Counted from the first letter of the stretch, positions 3,279 through 7,824 are shown. The stretch is DNA of 64,000 bases from Patescibacteria group bacterium (GCA_041660605.1 JBAZWB010000001.1:462879-526878), one strand, 5' to 3'. Numbers and translations are program-made. Notes: generated from the sequence alone by a model not told the origin.

Positions 3279-4138
3279 CCCCAGATTTTATTGCCATTGG
3301 CTTAATTATTATTTTTATCGGAGTGGTGGTTTTTATTCTGGCGAAAAAATTTCCCGTCATTTCTTCCATTGATGTTACCGGCCTGGAAAGCCATAAGCAG
3401 GAGAAGCGGAAGAAGGATTTGATTTCCAGAAGGCTGCAGCGCAAATTAGGAATATTCAAGCTAAAACAGAAAATATCCGGTTCTAATGAAATTGCCGGCC
3501 AAGATTCAATTTTTAAACGTTTTCACGGATTTGTTAAAAAATTAGAAAACCAATATCAGGAAAAAATCCGGAAAGTAGAGCCTCTAGAAGAGGGAAGTGC
3601 TGATAAGAAAAAAATGGTTTTGATGCACGAGGCAAAAGAATTAGCGTCTCAGCAAAAATTCAAAGAAGCTGAAGAAAAATACATTGAAGTTATCAGCCTG
3701 GACAACAAGTATAATGAAGCATATGAGCATCTGGCGGAAGTTTATGTTGAACAGAAAGATTATACCCACGCAAAGGAAATTTATGAATTTCTCTTGAAAT
3801 CCAGCAGTACCGCAAAAACAGATGATGGATCCGGTGACGCAGGTACGGCCATAAGAGGGCAAGTAAATGCGGTTTCACTAAATAAGGAAGTAGCAGAATA
3901 TCATATCGGACTGGGGGAGGTATTTCTTTCTTTGGGGAACACTGCGGAGGCATGGAAAAACTTCGAAGAAGCAATAAAACTTGAACCGAATAATCCGCGA
4001 AATTTGGATTTAATAATTTCCGCGGCTATCCAGCTTAAAGACAAAAAATCAGCTTTGCAGTATATTGAAAAATTAAAAACAGCTAATTCGGAAAATGAAA
4101 AGCTTGATGATTTTAAAAGGCAAGCCGACGAATTATAA
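3275..4138 (+). CDS. membrane-anchored TPR-repeat protein
   Basis: N-terminal TM helix, then TPR-like repeats (YNEAYEHLAEVYVEQKDYTHAKEIYEFLL; AEAWKNFEEAIKLEPNNP); ATGA overlap with the upstream gene. Confidence 0.55.
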   Translation: MTPDFIAIGLIIIFIGVVVFILAKKFPVISSIDVTGLESHKQEKRKKDLISRRLQRKLGIFKLKQKISGSNEIAGQDSIFKRFHGFVKKLENQYQEKIRKVEPLEEGSADKKKMVLMHEAKELASQQKFKEAEEKYIEVISLDNKYNEAYEHLAEVYVEQKDYTHAKEIYEFLLKSSSTAKTDDGSGDAGTAIRGQVNAVSLNKEVAEYHIGLGEVFLSLGNTAEAWKNFEEAIKLEPNNPRNLDLIISAAIQLKDKKSALQYIEKLKTANSENEKLDDFKRQADEL

Positions 4139-4204
4139 ATTTTTGTTTAGTTTTTAAAATTTTTTACCTTATAGTCTACCCACCGGCAAGTAGGCTCAGC
4201 TTGC

Positions 4205-4225
4205 CCCGCCTAGTTTAGGCGGGGT
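4205..4225. repeat. REP-like GC-rich palindrome, empty form (CCCCGCCTA gtt TAGGCGGGG)
   Basis: Perfect 9-bp arms. The same arm sequence flanks tRNA-Thr(GGT) at 4396-4487. Confidence 0.5.
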
Positions 4226-4405
4226 GAAGTAGAACAACTCCGCGCGTGAATAGTTGTTACGGATTACGTGTCCGCAAACAAGTTACGGCCACTTCACCCT
4301 TCGCAACATTCCCGCTTTTTCCTAAAAATGCCAAGCATTTTTAGGAATTGATAATTTAAAATTATTTATAGTAGTTAATCTAGAGGCTCAGCTTGCCCCG
4401 CCTCA

Positions 4406-4478
4406 GCCGATGTAGCTCAGTTGGTAGAGCAACTCCATGGTAAGGAGTAGGTCGTCGGTTCAATTCCGACCATCGGCT
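4406..4478 (+). tRNA. tRNA-Thr (anticodon GGT)
   Basis: Manual fold: acceptor GCCGATG/CATCGGC, D arm GCTC-AGTTGGT-AGAGC, anticodon arm ACTCC-ATGGTAA-GGAGT, T arm GTCGG-TTCAATT-CCGAC. 73 nt, no encoded CCA. Confidence 0.85.
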
Positions 4479-4480
4479 GA

Positions 4481-4636
4481 GGCGGGGTGAAGTAGAGCAA
4501 CTCCAGGCAAAGTCCTATACCCAAAACGAAAAGCTGTGGTATGTGAGTAAGAAGATCAGGGTTCCCCCGCCACAATAAATTTAATCTATTTATGTAGGGC
4601 GGGGTCCGCCTTTGGCGGAAATTCCGACCATCGGCT
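4481..4636 (+). pseudogene. degenerate tRNA-Thr(GGT)-like duplicate
   Basis: Keeps ...AGAGCAACTCC (D arm 3' strand through anticodon-stem 5' strand) and ATTCCGACCATCGGCT (T loop through acceptor). About 115 nt of unrelated sequence replaces the anticodon region. Confidence 0.4.
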
Positions 4637-4824
4637 TAGAGCGGGTAATACTACGGTTCCAGGATCACAGGCTTGACTGTTTTATATAAAGATAGTAAAT
4701 TCATAAGTTATTTTACAATGGTTTGTTCGGATACTAGCACCGAATAGCCTCACCAGGTGGGCAGGTACCCCCGGCATGCGCCGGGGCAGGCTCCGTGGTC
4801 AGTCTCTGTATTAACAACTATAGA

Positions 4825-4884
4825 GAATTAATGATCAAGTCATATAAAGGCGGAGAAGCTTTTAAGAGGCTCATTAAGAAATAA
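4825..4884 (+). pseudogene. 3'-terminal remnant of a second GIY-YIG gene copy
   Basis: Encodes ...LMIKSYKGGEAFKRLIKK*, nearly identical to the last 19 codons of the 5070..5312 gene, directly after L copy A. Confidence 0.55.
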
Positions 4885-4967
4885 ATAACCTCACCAGGTG
4901 GGCAGGTACCCCCGGCATACGCCGGGGCAGGCTCCGTGGTTAATCTCTGTATTAACAACTATGAAGT

Positions 4968-5003
4968 GGGTGGGTACCGAAGTGGTCAAACGGGGCAGAC
5001 TGT
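4968..5003 (+). pseudogene. tRNA-Tyr 5' half (through anticodon position 34/35) followed by unrelated insert
   Basis: Identical to the first 36 nt of the intact tRNA-Tyr at 5396, then diverges at ...GACTGT|CCCGCC. The AAATCTGC motif of the anticodon loop/stem reappears 52 nt later. Confidence 0.5.
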
Positions 5004-5069
5004 CCCGCCACAAAAAATAATATTGAATGAAGGCGGGATGCCGCCAGAGGCGGCATAAATCTGCATAAT

Positions 5070-5312
5070 ATGTTTAATGTCTATATATTAATAAGTCTGA
5101 GTTCAAGTTATTATTATATTGGTCACACAGTAAATATAGTTAAAAGGCTTAAGCAGCATAATTCAGGACATGTAAGGTCTACAAAAAGAGGTATCCCTTG
5201 GATATTAGTTTATAAAGAAATATGTAAGACAAAATCGGAAGCATACAAAAGGGAATTATTAATTAAATCATATAAAGGCGGAGAAGCTTTTAAGAGGCTC
5301 ATTAAGAAATAA
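5070..5312 (+). CDS. small GIY-YIG nuclease family protein (Slx1/YhbQ-like URI domain)
   Basis: YILISLSSSYYYIGHTVNIVKRLKQHNSG...RGIPWILVYKE...KSEAYKRELLIK matches the GIY-YIG consensus (GIY, YIG, R, E, N). Confidence 0.8.
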   Translation: MFNVYILISLSSSYYYIGHTVNIVKRLKQHNSGHVRSTKRGIPWILVYKEICKTKSEAYKRELLIKSYKGGEAFKRLIKK

Positions 5313-5321
5313 ATAACCTCA

Positions 5322-5625
5322 CCAGGTGGGCAGGTACCCCCGGCATACGCCGGGGCAGGCTCCGTGGTTATTCTCTGTATTAACAACTATGAAGTGGGTG
5401 GGTACCGAAGTGGTCAAACGGGGCAGACTGTAAATCTGCTGGCTCCGGCCTACGTAGGTTCGAACCCTACCCCACCCACTTCATAGTTGTCCTTAAGGAG
5501 ACTGCTTGTGCCGCCGAATGGCGGCATAAATCTGCTGGCTCTCCTCGAGTCTGAGCGACGAGGTCGCTAGTCCTCGGAGTCGATGACCGGCCTACGTAGG
5601 TTCAAACCCTACCCTGCCCACCTGG
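5322..5625 (+). other. nested tRNA-like structure enclosing tRNA-Tyr, with co-varying acceptor strands
   Basis: 5' CCAGGTGGGCAGG-TA-CCCC(CGGCATACGCC)GGGG-CAG... at 5322-5360. 3' ...AAATCTGCTGGCTC[46-nt insert]CGGCC-TAC-GTAGG-TTCAAAC-CCTAC-CCTGCCC-A-CCTGG at 5528-5625. The 13-bp outer stem pairs perfectly. Confidence 0.25.
5396..5478 (+). tRNA. tRNA-Tyr (anticodon GTA), class II with long variable arm
   Basis: Acceptor GGGTGGG/CCCACCC, anticodon arm GCAGA-CTGTAAA-TCTGC, variable arm TGGCTCCGGCC, T arm GTAGG-TTCGAAC-CCTAC. Flanked by an 18-bp perfect extended stem. Confidence 0.85.
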
Positions 5626-5665
5626 AGAGAGTTATTCAGAAGTAGTTTGTCCCGCCATAGCTGCT

Positions 5666-5737
5666 GCCACCCTAGCTCAGTGGTAGAGCAACGGTTTTGT
5701 AAACCGTAGGTCGTCGGTTCAAGTCCGACGGGTGGCT
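5666..5737 (+). tRNA. tRNA-Thr (anticodon TGT)
   Basis: Acceptor GCCACCC/GGGTGGC, D arm GCTC-AGTGGT-AGAGC, anticodon arm ACGGT-TTTGTAA-ACCGT, T arm GTCGG-TTCAAGT-CCGAC. 72 nt; flanked by CCCGCCATAG / CTATGGCGGG. Confidence 0.85.
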
Positions 5738-5740
5738 ATG

Positions 5741-5808
5741 GCGGGATAAAGTAGAGCAACGGTTTTGTAAACCGTAGGTCGGGGGTTCGAATCCCTTCGC
5801 TGGCTCCA
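5741..5808 (+). pseudogene. chimeric tRNA pseudogene
   Basis: Copies tRNA-Thr(TGT) D-arm 3' strand through variable loop (AGAGCAACGGTTTTGTAAACCGTAGGTC), then a different T arm/acceptor ending in CCA. The 5' acceptor does not pair with the 3' strand. Confidence 0.35.
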
Positions 5809-5849
5809 GCCAAAATTATAAATAAATCATTAAAATGTAATAAAAATTT

Positions 5850-6005
5850 ATGTCACAGGACAATTTGTTAAAATTTGAATGCAAGGAATGCCATCACATC
5901 AATTACCATTCCAAAAAGAATAAAAAAATTCTGAAGAACAGGATTGAATTGAAAAAATTCTGCAAATGGTGCAAAAAACATACCTTGCATAAGGAAACGA
6001 AATAA
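5850..6005 (+). CDS. rpmG: 50S ribosomal protein L33
   Basis: 51-aa ORF below the ORF-track cutoff: [51 protein letters not shown]. Zinc-ribbon C..C...C..C and C-terminal HTLHKETK are typical L33. Confidence 0.85.
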
Positions 6006-6144
6006 TGTTGAAAACCCCTTTCAGAAAGTGGTTTTCAATGCTTTCCGCAAACTAGATGATTCGCTCGCCCTGAAATGTCATGCCAGAGGCAGATCCGTCT
6101 TTGGCGGAAATTCAGGGCTCGCGGTTGATAAAATAAATTTTCAG

Positions 6145-6219
6145 GGGAGCATAGTGAAATGGCTATCACAAGGGTCTCCAAAACCCTTATTCTAGGTTCG
6201 AGTCCTAGTGCTCCCGCCA
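6145..6219 (+). tRNA. tRNA-Trp (anticodon CCA), CCA end encoded
   Basis: Acceptor GGGAGCA/TGCTCCC, anticodon arm AGGGT-CTCCAAA-ACCCT, T arm CTAGG-TTCGAGT-CCTAG, then GCCA. Confidence 0.85.
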
Positions 6220-6516
6220 GTGTCCGCCAACGGGCGCTTAGAGTGGAAAACTTTTCTAAAGAAATTTATAGTTAGAATCATGTTCAGCAAGGACATGGTG
6301 TATTTTGCATTAAATATATATTTTCTTTAACATTAAAATGAGGGAGGAAACGACGAATTTGTCACAAAAGAAATAGACGTCGGATAAGGAGCGGGTTAAC
6401 CCCCCCCCTCTTTTTTTGTGCTCAGCGGAAAATTTTACCACCCACGAAGCCAAAAAATAAAAAACCAGGCAAAGGCCCGGTTTTCCAGTTAGAGTACAAT
6501 TCGCTAAAGGAACAGA

Positions 6517-6879
6517 TTATGCTGCTCGTGTCCCGAACCACGAAGGTGGTTCAACGGGCTTCTCTCTTTCGGCGTCTGGTGGCATCAGTTCCGGGCAGTG
6601 TTCATCGATGATCATTTCCAGTTCCACACGTCGTTTTTGCTCCCAGACGTAGCGCTGGAATAGCTCGTTTACATACCACTGAACCAGCTCACCCACGCGA
6701 GCTCCGAATCGACGAGCCAGCATGTCGGTGAATTTCCTGTTCAGGCGTTCTTTCCAGTTTCGGCAAACCTGAAGCGTGATATTCAACCGTCTCATTTTTG
6801 CCAGACCTTCTTCATTCATGAGGTACCTCATTTCCGTAGCAGTTGTGAAAACTACATTATTGTAACTTTCTGCTACCAC
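6517..6879 (-). CDS. hypothetical protein in a compositionally atypical (GC-richer) segment
   Basis: 120-aa ORF, basic and W/R-rich. Local sequence is visibly GC-richer than its flanks. Confidence 0.35.
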   Translation of the reverse strand: MVAESYNNVVFTTATEMRYLMNEEGLAKMRRLNITLQVCRNWKERLNRKFTDMLARRFGARVGELVQWYVNELFQRYVWEQKRRVELEMIIDEHCPELMPPDAEREKPVEPPSWFGTRAA

Positions 6880-7371: not shown

Positions 7372-7824
7372 TTGAAGTTTATGAGATTAACAAGTCCACA
7401 TTTTAATAACAATAAATCAATACCTTCCAGGTTTACTTGTGAAGGTGAAAACATCAATCCACGCCTGGAAATTTACGATGTTCCGGAAACGGCGAAAAGC
7501 CTGGTTTTGATCATGGAAGATCCGGACGCTACTATTGGTATTTTTGATCATTGGCTGATCTGGAATATGCCCGTTGATCAATCCGGAATCGGCGAAAACA
7601 GCACGCCTCCGGGAATCCAGGGCGTAAATTCTGCGGGCAAAAACGGTTATATTGGGCCGTGTCCGCCTACTGGCGAACACCGTTATTTTTTCAATCTTTA
7701 CGCTCTGGACACTAATATTTCACTGGACCGCACGACCGGCAAAGCCAGGCTGCATCAGGCGATGTCCGGTCATATTGTTGCTCAGACGCAATTAATCGGC
7801 AGATATAAGCGTTCAAAATTATAA
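7372..7824 (+). CDS. YbhB/YbcL family PEBP (Raf kinase inhibitor-like) protein
   Basis: DPDAT...HWLIWN...GxNSxGxxGYxGPCPPxGxHRYxFxLYALD is the PEBP family signature. Confidence 0.8.
   Translation: MKFMRLTSPHFNNNKSIPSRFTCEGENINPRLEIYDVPETAKSLVLIMEDPDATIGIFDHWLIWNMPVDQSGIGENSTPPGIQGVNSAGKNGYIGPCPPTGEHRYFFNLYALDTNISLDRTTGKARLHQAMSGHIVAQTQLIGRYKRSKL

Follow-up and report, generated by a model that had tools for sequence, protein, structure and literature searches.

Ssn enzymes are small single-domain GIY-YIG nucleases that bind the hairpin repeats on either side of the gene encoding them and cut single-stranded DNA (ssDNA) directly upstream of the hairpin, tolerating any hairpin-loop sequence as well as loop extensions (PMC11893778). 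A gene for a free-standing GIY-YIG homing endonuclease lying among tRNA genes is known from phage T4, where its product, SegB, promotes the inheritance of its own tRNA region in a cycle of invasion and decay (PMC2330249), and integrative elements that target tRNA genes interrupt the tRNA, carry the displaced part, regenerate an intact gene and leave a partial copy behind (Williams 2002; reviewed in PMC9897764). All three resemble in part the tRNA locus described here, which lies within positions 4139 to 5849 of a 64,000-nucleotide stretch of DNA (the window; GCA_041660605.1, JBAZWB010000001.1:462879-526878). The window is part of a 960-kb contig from the metagenome-assembled genome of a tiny-genome bacterium of the Patescibacteria (Candidate Phyla Radiation [CPR]). 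We found that the locus is a pile-up of successive tRNA gene replacements: each intact tRNA sits in the loop of a hairpin module, the module in turn interrupts a loop of an earlier copy of that tRNA, with the decayed halves of the earlier copy on either side, and further GC-rich hairpins of the same family fill what were once the D, anticodon, variable and T loops of dead copies. We propose, with a probability that we put at roughly 0.6, that this structure arose as a selfish element associated with hairpins and a nuclease invaded again and again, each time restoring the tRNA that it broke.

The gene order at the locus is rpsB-tsf-PSP1-TPR, followed by tRNA-Thr(GGT), tRNA-Tyr, tRNA-Thr(TGT), rpmG and tRNA-Trp, and the parts of the locus described below lie on the + strand. 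An Rfam search at E ≤ 10 over positions 3800-6500 returned the four tRNAs as its sole matches, with no match to an intron, a ribozyme or a partial tRNA. The intact tRNA-Thr(GGT) (4406-4478; 72.6 bits) forms the center of cassette 1 (4396-4487), between a left arm, CCCCGCCTCA (4396-4405), and a right arm, TGAGGCGGGG (4478-4487), that begins at the discriminator base of the tRNA. A preliminary description of this DNA had reported a 17-bp stem including the acceptor, and the arms together with the acceptor stem do make up a 17-nt perfect inverted repeat; the RNA folds into a cloverleaf atop a continuous helix (z = -8.4). Outside the cassette lie the pieces of a second, dead tRNA-Thr(GGT). Its 5' remnant, AGGCTCAGCTTG (4384-4395), resembles a tRNA D-stem and D-loop, and the full outer 5' end is kept in relatives (GCGCCGATGTAGCTCAG in locus L011, and also in L012, L016 and L023; L numbers denote loci in other genomes). 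The 3' remainder (4488-4636) is made up of tRNA pieces, filler and two hairpins. Here GTAGAGCAACTCCA (4492-4505) is 100% identical to tRNA-Thr(GGT) positions 20-33, and AATTCCGACCATCGGCT (4620-4636), 115 nt beyond it, is 100% identical to positions 58-74 (E values of 5e-4 and 8e-6, respectively); the first is followed by unrelated filler and then by GGGTTC, where hairpin A (4565-4604) and hairpin B (4605-4619) break the T-loop. Since both flanks match the tRNA, we concluded that cassette 1 is lodged in the D-loop of an older, decayed tRNA-Thr(GGT), the T-loop of which has also been split.

A cargo-less version of the same hairpin, CCCCGCCTAgttTAGGCGGGG, lies 192 bp upstream of its tRNA-bearing counterpart. 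It had previously been placed at 4205-4225; the free-standing palindrome exists, but its coordinates are one base lower (4204-4224). It belongs to an "empty" shell (4192-4241) in which it is preceded by the D-arm remnant AGGCTCAGCTTG of a dead tRNA-Thr and followed by the trailer TGAAGTAGAACAACTCC, which equals the D-stem 3' strand plus the anticodon-stem 5' strand. The leader that the empty and occupied copies were said to have in common is indeed identical over 20 nt (4192-4211 and 4384-4403), and we found that the two also have a common trailer, AGGCGGGGTGAAGTAGARCAACTCC (identical at 24 of 25 positions), which had gone unreported.

The intact tRNA-Tyr is nested in the same manner, in the anticodon region of a decayed older tRNA-Tyr. 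Cassette 2 (5372-5501) consists of an AT-rich left arm (5372-5395), the tRNA (5396-5478; 60.5 bits) and a right arm (5478-5501). The long perfect stem attributed to it is real, but its length is not the 18 bp first given: the extension is 13 bp, making 20 contiguous pairs with the acceptor stem, and it falls within a 31-nt arm pair that is 84% complementary. The RNA folds into a cloverleaf atop one long helix (z = -6.9). Downstream lies the 3' remainder (5502-5622) of the outer, ancestral-type dead tRNA-Tyr, which runs from ACTGCTTGT through hairpin B' (GCCGCCGAATGGCGGC, 5510-5525), TAAATCTGCTGGCTC (5527-5541) and a 45-nt insert in the variable arm (5542-5586) to CCTGCCCACC (5587-5622), its T-arm and acceptor. 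The acceptor strand of CCTGCCCACC pairs with GGTGGGCAGG of the 79-nt units described below (GGGCAGG/CCTGCCC) over distances of 280-850 nt and is of the type found in the intact tRNA-Tyr of L009 and L021. The working tRNA-Tyr, with the acceptor GGGTGGG, is therefore the newcomer inside an ancestral tRNA-Tyr. The 45-nt insert itself carries a small hairpin (GCGAC-GAG-GTCGC) from a sequence family other than that of the CCGCC hairpins.

Further tRNA-Tyr debris lies upstream, much of it in three copies of a 79-nt unit in which the D-arm of an ancestral-type tRNA-Tyr 5' end has been replaced by a hairpin. Copy A (4743-4821), which also occurs in L012, comprises the 5' end GGGCAGGTACC (from 4759), the hairpin CCCCGGCATGCGCCGGGG and part of the AT-rich left arm, and is followed by a GIY-YIG pseudogene fragment (4822-4881) covering amino acids (aa) 61-80 with 95% identity. 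Copy B (4884-4962) opens a longer block (4884-5064) that continues with the left arm and the 5' half of a tRNA-Tyr. This half (4968-5003) is 100% identical to positions 1-36 and stops in the anticodon loop (35/36), where hairpin A (5004-5037) and hairpin B (GCCGCCAGAGGCGGC, 5040-5054) interrupt it, after which the dead gene continues as TAAATCTGC (5056-5064). Copy C (5312-5390) again carries the ancestral-type 5' fragment, its D-arm replaced by a hairpin.

At the third gene, tRNA-Thr(TGT) (5666-5737; 73.5 bits), the geometry is different. Cassette 3 (5651-5745) has a left arm, CCCGCCATAGC (5651-5661), the filler TGCT, the tRNA and a right arm, GCTATGGCGGG (5735-5745). The preliminary description was correct about the flanking arms, but they do not form a continuous extended acceptor stem, as they are not coaxial with the acceptor: the 5' arm is parted from the tRNA by 4-6 nt (GCTGCT in the pairing scan, TGCT with the arm boundaries given here), and the 3' arm overlaps the last three bases of the tRNA. 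The spacer AGCTGCT is kept in L009. This junction, with its filler on the left and three tRNA nucleotides in common with the arm on the right, suggests the capture, at the DNA level, of a tRNA into a pre-existing hairpin. Immediately downstream (5751-5808) is what is left of an older tRNA-Thr(TGT), a displaced 3' part running from the D-stem to the CCA, in which the T-arm differs and the acceptor is CGCTGGC. It is 87% identical to positions 21-74 of tRNA-Thr(TGT) in L055 (E = 3e-11), a Moranbacteria locus where the CGCTGGC type is intact, and its first part (5751-5781) is 100% identical to tRNA-Thr(TGT) positions 18-48.

The hairpins themselves are a local family. Six of the 10 CCGCC..GGCGG pairs in the 64 kb fall within 4204-5525 (1.3 kb), where chance would give ~1.6 in the whole window, and the sites of the hairpins at all loci are former loops of dead tRNAs (D-loop, positions 34-36, variable arm and T-loop). 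The arms had been called REP-like, a label that these 64 kb do not support: the GC hairpins are confined to the tRNA locus, occupy former loops of dead copies and so do not behave as a genome-wide REP. Many of them start with CTTGCCCCGC and end with GCGGGG(TGAA). The arms of the two Thr genes are likewise GC rich (CTTG-CCCCGCC...GGCGGGG-TGAAG), whereas those of tRNA-Tyr form an AT-rich inverted repeat. The outer part of the arms is lineage specific, being CCCCGCC/GGCGGGG in the window, L009 and L016 and TCCCGTC/GACGGGA in L011 and L012, where the arms adjoin cargo-less TCCCGAC hairpins. The Thr arms are thus members of the same lineage-specific family as the cargo-less hairpins of the locus, and cargo-less hairpins are much more widespread than tRNA-bearing ones. 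No Rfam family matched the GC hairpins. We also considered whether they might be terminators and rejected this, since T-runs do not come after them; a promoter and terminator scan gave counts at the chance level. Among viral contigs, the hairpin B pattern gave one unrelated match with no tRNAs, and the nuclease protein described below gave none, so there is no sign of a phage vector. Outside the Patescibacteria, an Endomicrobiales locus (L079, 1910-2135) has a tRNA-Ala 5' fragment (GGGCCGGTAGTTC) with a long D-loop hairpin ~110 nt upstream of an intact tRNA-Ala and no nuclease gene nearby; its hairpin, TCCGCCAGAGGCGGA, is also found in L058 of the Patescibacteria.

A genome-contig search with the PSP1 neighbor returned matches from other phyla (36-41% identical) and no orthologous loci, and the syntenic loci of relatives were reached through homologues of the adjacent TPR protein. 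The same nesting is found in L009, L011, L012, L016, L019 and L023. For the first five of these, EF-Ts is 64-71% and PSP1 57-64% identical to the window proteins, a distance at which neutral DNA should be saturated. L011 reads GCGCCGATGTAGCTCAG, two hairpins, TTGG, the arm-tRNA-arm module and then TAAAGTAGAGCA. Three concentric levels lie on either side of tRNA-Thr(GGT) in L012 (5904-6148), and in L016 the outer tRNA-Thr has inserts in the D-arm, the D-loop (the live tRNA), the anticodon loop and the T-loop; L019 and L023 are similar. L009 has 2.3 tandem copies of a 68-nt segment running from GTAGAGC to GGCGGGGTGAA, the expected outcome of unequal exchange between inner and outer GTAGAGCAACTCC repeats. 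In the more distant L021, the array is compact and clean, with neither arms nor fragments, and in L017 it is compact, with intact tRNAs that lack arms and only an upstream hairpin-bearing 5' fragment. The comparison of orthologous loci proposed earlier thus shows complementary flanks and nesting in several relatives, whereas non-nested tRNAs are without stems. Tyrosine-recombinase (Phage_integrase) genes lie directly downstream of the array in L009 (7232-8044, - strand) and L069 (2491-3243).

Between the broken tRNA-Tyr half and copy C lies a GIY-YIG nuclease gene (5070-5312), the only open reading frame (ORF) of at least 60 aa between 4140 and 5850. Its product is a single domain of 80 aa (PF01541 over residues 2-67, E = 1.4e-17). 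The catalytic residues Y5, Y16, G18, R26, H30 and E62 are invariant in 12 homologues from four phyla, which are 79-92 aa long; cluster representatives match the protein in 325 cases at E ≤ 1e-10 and in 4914 at E ≤ 1e-3. Given the invariant residues and the 325 close representatives, the nuclease looks functional as judged from its sequence. Homologues (117 in a word-indexed search) are abundant in Patescibacteria and occur also in other phyla. The closest solved structures are the UPF0213 proteins 1ywl and 1zg2, which have no assigned function, and NCBIfam gave no specific family, only sub-threshold matches to GIY-YIG N-terminal models (TIGR01453). Two representatives, P0159 (205 aa) and P0160 (214 aa), contain two GIY-YIG matching stretches each, and many others are 100-140 aa long and match from residue 20-60; these long representatives are probably ORF calls extended upstream through a region of hairpins and tRNA fragments.

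We compared 11 such genes from Patescibacteria, Endomicrobiales and Omnitrophica. Every one lies on the strand of an intact tRNA, 0-83 nt upstream of it or overlapping it (Tyr in six cases, Thr(GGT) in two, and Ser(GGA), Glu and Trp in one each). For nine, the 150 nt upstream hold a 5' fragment of the same tRNA with its loop broken by one or two GC hairpins, in the order fragment, hairpins, 8-17 more tRNA nucleotides, short spacer and start codon; the GC hairpins end 10-40 nt before the start codon, and the tRNA and further hairpins lie downstream. Across Patescibacteria, Ignavibacteria, Endomicrobiales and Omnitrophica, the gene keeps to one layout: a tRNA 5' part that ends at some loop position X, then hairpins A and B, the 8-17 nt that follow X, a spacer, the nuclease ORF and an intact gene for that tRNA. 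L080 shows this most clearly: tRNA-Glu positions 1-12 are followed by two hairpins, positions 13-27, the ORF and an intact tRNA-Glu. L079 is arranged likewise, its tRNA-Ser being broken in the T-loop, and in Ignavibacteria the order is mirrored, with an intact tRNA-Ser, the ORF and a hairpin-bearing tRNA 3' part in tandem repeats. At some loci the ORF runs into the tRNA: the stop codon of the L058 nuclease is the TAG of tRNA positions 8-10 (1302-1311), and in L055 (2243-2279) and L080 (1437-1461) the last 8-12 nuclease codons are tRNA sequence, so that ORF and tRNA are physically fused units. Intact, fragmentary and remnant nuclease genes stand side by side in the window, L009 and L023. Such coexistence is what a homing-endonuclease life cycle would be expected to produce.

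Several comparisons bear signs of mobility. In Ignavibacteria, an identical protein (P0058) is encoded in two contexts, in tandem after tRNA-Ser and at an ectopic site, where its gene lies between 17-nt direct repeats of a tRNA 3' end (19 nt with the CCA of the left copy). L062 and L058 have the module in common but differ in their upstream genes, with the breakpoint exactly at the hairpin edge. L061 lies at one end of a 65-kb contig; its left side matches L055 and its right side L058, each with 100% identity, the join falling in a 27-nt hairpin B (1457-1483), so that L055 and L061 have the same left flank and different nuclease-plus-tRNA-Tyr modules. Either this join records a very recent swap, or allelic replacement, of the nuclease-plus-Tyr module or the contig is chimeric.

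How does this complex compare with the described systems? As in Ssn/SRM (cd10448; Chenal et al. 2025), a small single-domain GIY-YIG protein has intact catalytic residues, and its gene is flanked by GC-rich short-loop hairpin repeats in an IS-like "hairpin-gene-hairpin" arrangement (NTS/SRM); the loop tolerance of Ssn would fit both the junctions between tRNA fragment and hairpin and the tRNA-loaded hairpin. However, Ssn repeats are scattered in hundreds of copies, whereas the hairpins here are confined to tRNA loci, and the Ssn paper contains no mention of tRNA (PMC11893778). SegB-type enzymes exceed 200 aa and have a DNA-binding domain, whereas the nuclease here is a bare catalytic domain of 80 aa, and SegB homing involves neither nested or partial tRNA copies nor hairpins, both of which are present here. 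The integrative elements of tRNA genes span kilobases, use tyrosine or serine recombinases and normally duplicate only the 3' part, whereas the element here is 20-450 bp, has no recombinase, leaves 5', 3' or both halves and has hairpin-marked junctions. REP/BIME-RAYT and the IS200/IS605 "peel and paste" elements resemble it in that GC-rich palindromes acting as ssDNA hairpins, together with a small nuclease, define the element ends; in REP/RAYT, however, the repeats are genome-wide, whereas here they are local, target tRNA loops and carry a tRNA as hairpin-loop cargo. No HUH/Y1 transposase was found among the ORFs of 4100-6300, the ORFs of the window not having been scanned systematically. The complex thus mixes Ssn-like hairpin features with SegB-type and tRNA-restoring features but fails a defining feature of each (the SRM motif, the DNA-binding domain and the recombinase, respectively). 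We found nothing in the literature that describes nested or hairpin-flanked tRNAs or minimal GIY-YIG genes linked to tRNAs.

The proposed invasions would proceed as follows. Selfish elements would target tRNA genes, and the host would be spared because an intact tRNA is brought in or regenerated, the replacement being placed downstream of the nuclease gene (the tandem form) or carried as cargo in a hairpin loop (the nested form). By analogy, the nuclease, probably Ssn-like, would bind its cognate hairpin in ssDNA and nick directly upstream of it. The nick point predicted in this way is the observed junction of tRNA fragment and hairpin, and a tRNA-loaded hairpin would still be a substrate. The module would then be copied or integrated by host recombination or repair. 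For the tandem form, two routes can be envisaged, namely, a Campbell-type crossover in which a small element (tRNA 1..X, hairpins, X+1..X+n, ORF) recombines with the chromosomal tRNA inside the tRNA segment common to both and a one-sided break repair of the tRNA copied from a donor with an upstream nuclease gene; either would regenerate an intact tRNA and leave a capped fragment. Repeated rounds, together with decay of the nuclease gene, would leave Russian-doll shells. The arms would be kept complementary by the need for the hairpin, which the acceptor stem of the tRNA itself closes, to go on forming, and the retained pairing could serve DNA-level recognition, clean excision of the inner pre-tRNA from among tRNA-like decoys or both. 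The earlier suggestion that tRNAs were inserted into hairpin elements comes close to this, given that arms and cargo-less hairpins belong to one family and that the Thr(TGT) junction looks like a capture, but it falls short of the context: the hairpin occupies a loop of another, dead gene for that tRNA, accompanied by a GIY-YIG gene and many other tRNA fragments. Two other origins of the nested copies were rejected in whole or in part. Retro-insertion of a tRNA cDNA fails because the nested tRNAs have no encoded CCA at the junction, and fold-back synthesis primed by the acceptor stem fails for the Thr arms, which match the existing hairpin family, but is possible for the AT-rich Tyr arms. More tentatively, and we think with the odds against it, the data might define a new class of mobile element, in which ssDNA-mobilized hairpin modules with an 80-aa GIY-YIG nuclease enter tRNA loops with a replacement tRNA, such that CPR tRNA genes are serially overwritten by horizontal alleles; in a radical variant, the inserts would be protein-dependent introns.

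A number of observations weigh against the invasion model. GIY-YIG enzymes are hydrolytic and therefore cannot join DNA themselves, which leaves the integration step unexplained. The SRM consensus, HGTCWYN(0-2)YYVSBRHN(0-5)WNVSBRGN(0-2)RNCYNB, has no match in the window or in 12 related loci; the nearest solved relatives of the protein are UPF0213 proteins, and its place in the Ssn clade (cd10448) is at most putative. Neither Thr cassette of the window adjoins a nuclease gene, the link to the nested form being through common hairpins and loci. The Tyr arms are AT rich, differ wholly between lineages and lie outside the GC hairpin family. The "empty" copy, a paralogue from within the same genome, may have been derived by deletion, and L061 could be a chimeric assembly. 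Some of the supposedly dead pieces are strikingly conserved at 64% EF-Ts identity, such as AGGTACCCCCGGCATNCGCCGGG, found three times in the window and also in L012, which hints at function or recent transfer. Finally, positions 4434-5830 of the window are known from one assembly alone.

The strongest rival starts from the stems. Whatever the locus, only nested tRNAs have long paired flanks. At least 10 extra perfect pairs beside a tRNA, with a chance of ~1e-6 each, are present on three of the four tRNAs of the window, the exception being tRNA-Trp, the leader-trailer pairing of which is at most 5 bp in nine of nine loci; stems are also absent from the non-nested tRNA-Tyr and tRNA-Thr(TGT) of L011, L016, L017, L021, L048, L055 and L058. 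Covariation of the arms, a check proposed in the preliminary description, is seen for tRNA-Thr(GGT): in seven lineages, double compensatory changes affect 7 of the 10 extension pairs, and the consensus fold keeps the 10-pair extension. The long stems could be mainly an RNA feature, a processing or insulating clamp on the inner pre-tRNA that lets an RNase III-type cut precede RNase P and 3' trimming in a transcript with competing tRNA-like sequences, the nesting having arisen otherwise and the stems having been selected later. In keeping with this, pairing is preserved by compensatory changes in seven lineages even though the arm sequences differ between lineages, those of tRNA-Tyr above all, and the helix runs on from the acceptor stem, even into the outer D-stem. 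Several facts sit badly with it: tRNA-Trp at every locus and the non-nested tRNA-Tyr and tRNA-Thr(TGT) of relatives do without stems, the arms of tRNA-Thr(TGT) are displaced from the acceptor stem and compete with it, an identical hairpin without a tRNA exists at 4204-4224, and the hairpins in dead copies and the nuclease gene are left unexplained. A paired 5' leader and discriminator base, moreover, normally hinder RNase P. We regard an RNA role as the principal cause of the stems as improbable, though compatible with the invasion model rather than exclusive of it, and a secondary role of the stems, at the RNA or DNA level, may exist. Because the stems are restricted to nested tRNAs, the stronger alternative offered previously, that this lineage builds its pre-tRNAs with long basal stems as a processing signal, is not supported at the loci examined.

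The interrupted copies invite a different question, whether they are themselves functional genes whose 15- to 60-nt inserts are a new kind of protein-dependent bacterial tRNA intron with the GIY-YIG protein as homing endonuclease. The inserts lie precisely in loops and have a conserved two-hairpin architecture with sequences that differ by lineage, and one copy of tRNA-Tyr, in L023, has an intact anticodon loop and still carries a T-loop insert. The 35/36 site of the Tyr and Thr(TGT) inserts is, moreover, the site of group I introns in tRNAs of the same phylum (Nakagawa et al. 2026, PMC13011429), a report that makes no mention of GIY-YIG genes, hairpins or pseudogenes. Group I introns, though, have a ribozyme core, an insert of ~200 nt or more and both complete exons, whereas the inserts here are hairpins of 15-60 nt with no ribozyme core (none was found by Rfam over 3800-6500), and the interrupted copies are truncated. 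The multiply interrupted, split and permuted tRNAs of archaea and Cyanidioschyzon, with bulge-helix-bulge introns, also have short inserts in D-, anticodon- and T-loops, but these are spliced by a protein endonuclease not known from bacteria, and here an intact copy always stands beside the truncated ones. Bacteria are not known to have a tRNA splicing endonuclease. All of the interrupted copies examined are truncated or stem-broken (the outer tRNA-Thr of L016 lacks part of the T-stem, and the tRNA-Tyr copies of the window and L048 end after the anticodon stem), and an uninterrupted copy of the same tRNA always adjoins; for these two reasons, we consider functional introns very unlikely.

Hardly more credible, and if anything slightly less so, is the idea that the fragments are decayed attL and attR sites of integrase islands or prophages that were repeatedly gained and lost. 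Partial tRNA duplications are the classic signature of integration (PMC9897764), and tyrosine-recombinase genes lie a few hundred base pairs downstream of the array in L009 and L069. Yet the fragments lie just 10-430 nt from the intact genes, the sole ORF of at least 60 aa in 4140-5850 is that of the GIY-YIG protein with no recombinase, the 5' and 3' halves flank the intact gene symmetrically in a true nesting, the breakpoints are at the D-loop, 35/36 and the T-loop and are always capped by a GC hairpin, and the same structure occurs on tRNA-Glu and tRNA-Ser in other phyla with only an 80-aa nuclease between the copies.

A Logan contig from an independent assembly (SRR6484324) is identical to the window over 4100-4434, a segment that spans the empty hairpin and the leader and reaches into cassette 1, and breaks inside a repeated tRNA segment. 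Thus, although the region is rich in repeats, this contig ends within one of them at 4434 and L061 resembles a join of two other contigs at a common 27-nt segment, it is most improbable that strain variants of the tRNA array were collapsed or misjoined in assembly, as 4100-4434 is confirmed, more than 12 organisms of four phyla, assembled independently in different projects, have the architecture in lineage-specific versions, and the differences between inner and outer copies are not those that strain mixing would give.

If the invasion model is correct, a selfish element can colonize the essential single-copy tRNA genes of very small bacterial genomes by carrying a spare, and a nuclease gene travels horizontally along with tRNA alleles that differ in their acceptor and anticodon stems. 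The model would also supply a biological context, in tRNA loci and hairpin junctions, for a large uncharacterized family of minimal GIY-YIG proteins (325 clusters at E ≤ 1e-10 and thousands more distant) and extend the recently discovered connection of small GIY-YIG nucleases with DNA hairpins. In practical terms, such loci break assemblies, their tRNA-like fragments may be miscalled by annotation tools, and their nuclease ORFs receive false N-terminal extensions in gene calls; the nuclease-hairpin pairs are potential new sequence- or structure-specific ssDNA tools.

Toward the end of the array, a T-arm-like piece upstream of tRNA-Trp (6062-6123) is broken by the hairpin TCCGTCTTTGGCGGA. The palindrome CGCTCGCCCTGAA...AATTCAGGGCTCGCG at this place is interrupted by a TCCGYCTTTGGCGGA-AATTC hairpin identical to 4605-4624, and the same sort of debris therefore adjoins tRNA-Trp. 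In L012, the intact tRNA-Trp and its terminator are followed (7450-7620) by a displaced tRNA-Trp 3' fragment with an ~85-nt T-loop insert and a duplicated terminator, and a similar insert of ~83 nt splits the T-loop of the Tyr fragments of that locus (6440-6520). No counterpart of the recombinase genes of L009 and L069 was seen directly after tRNA-Trp in the window, where an ORF (6517-6879) has no Pfam match. A conserved noncoding element of ~90 nt lies at 4261-4347 in the window, at 6994-7085 in L012 (directly upstream of rpmG) and at 5205-5295 in L016. It consists of GGWTTACGTGTG, a hairpin, CCACTKCACC and a second hairpin, CCYAAAAAT-GC..GC-ATTTTTRGG, and has no Rfam match; its stems show compensatory changes over the three lineages, and it may be a small RNA or a leader.

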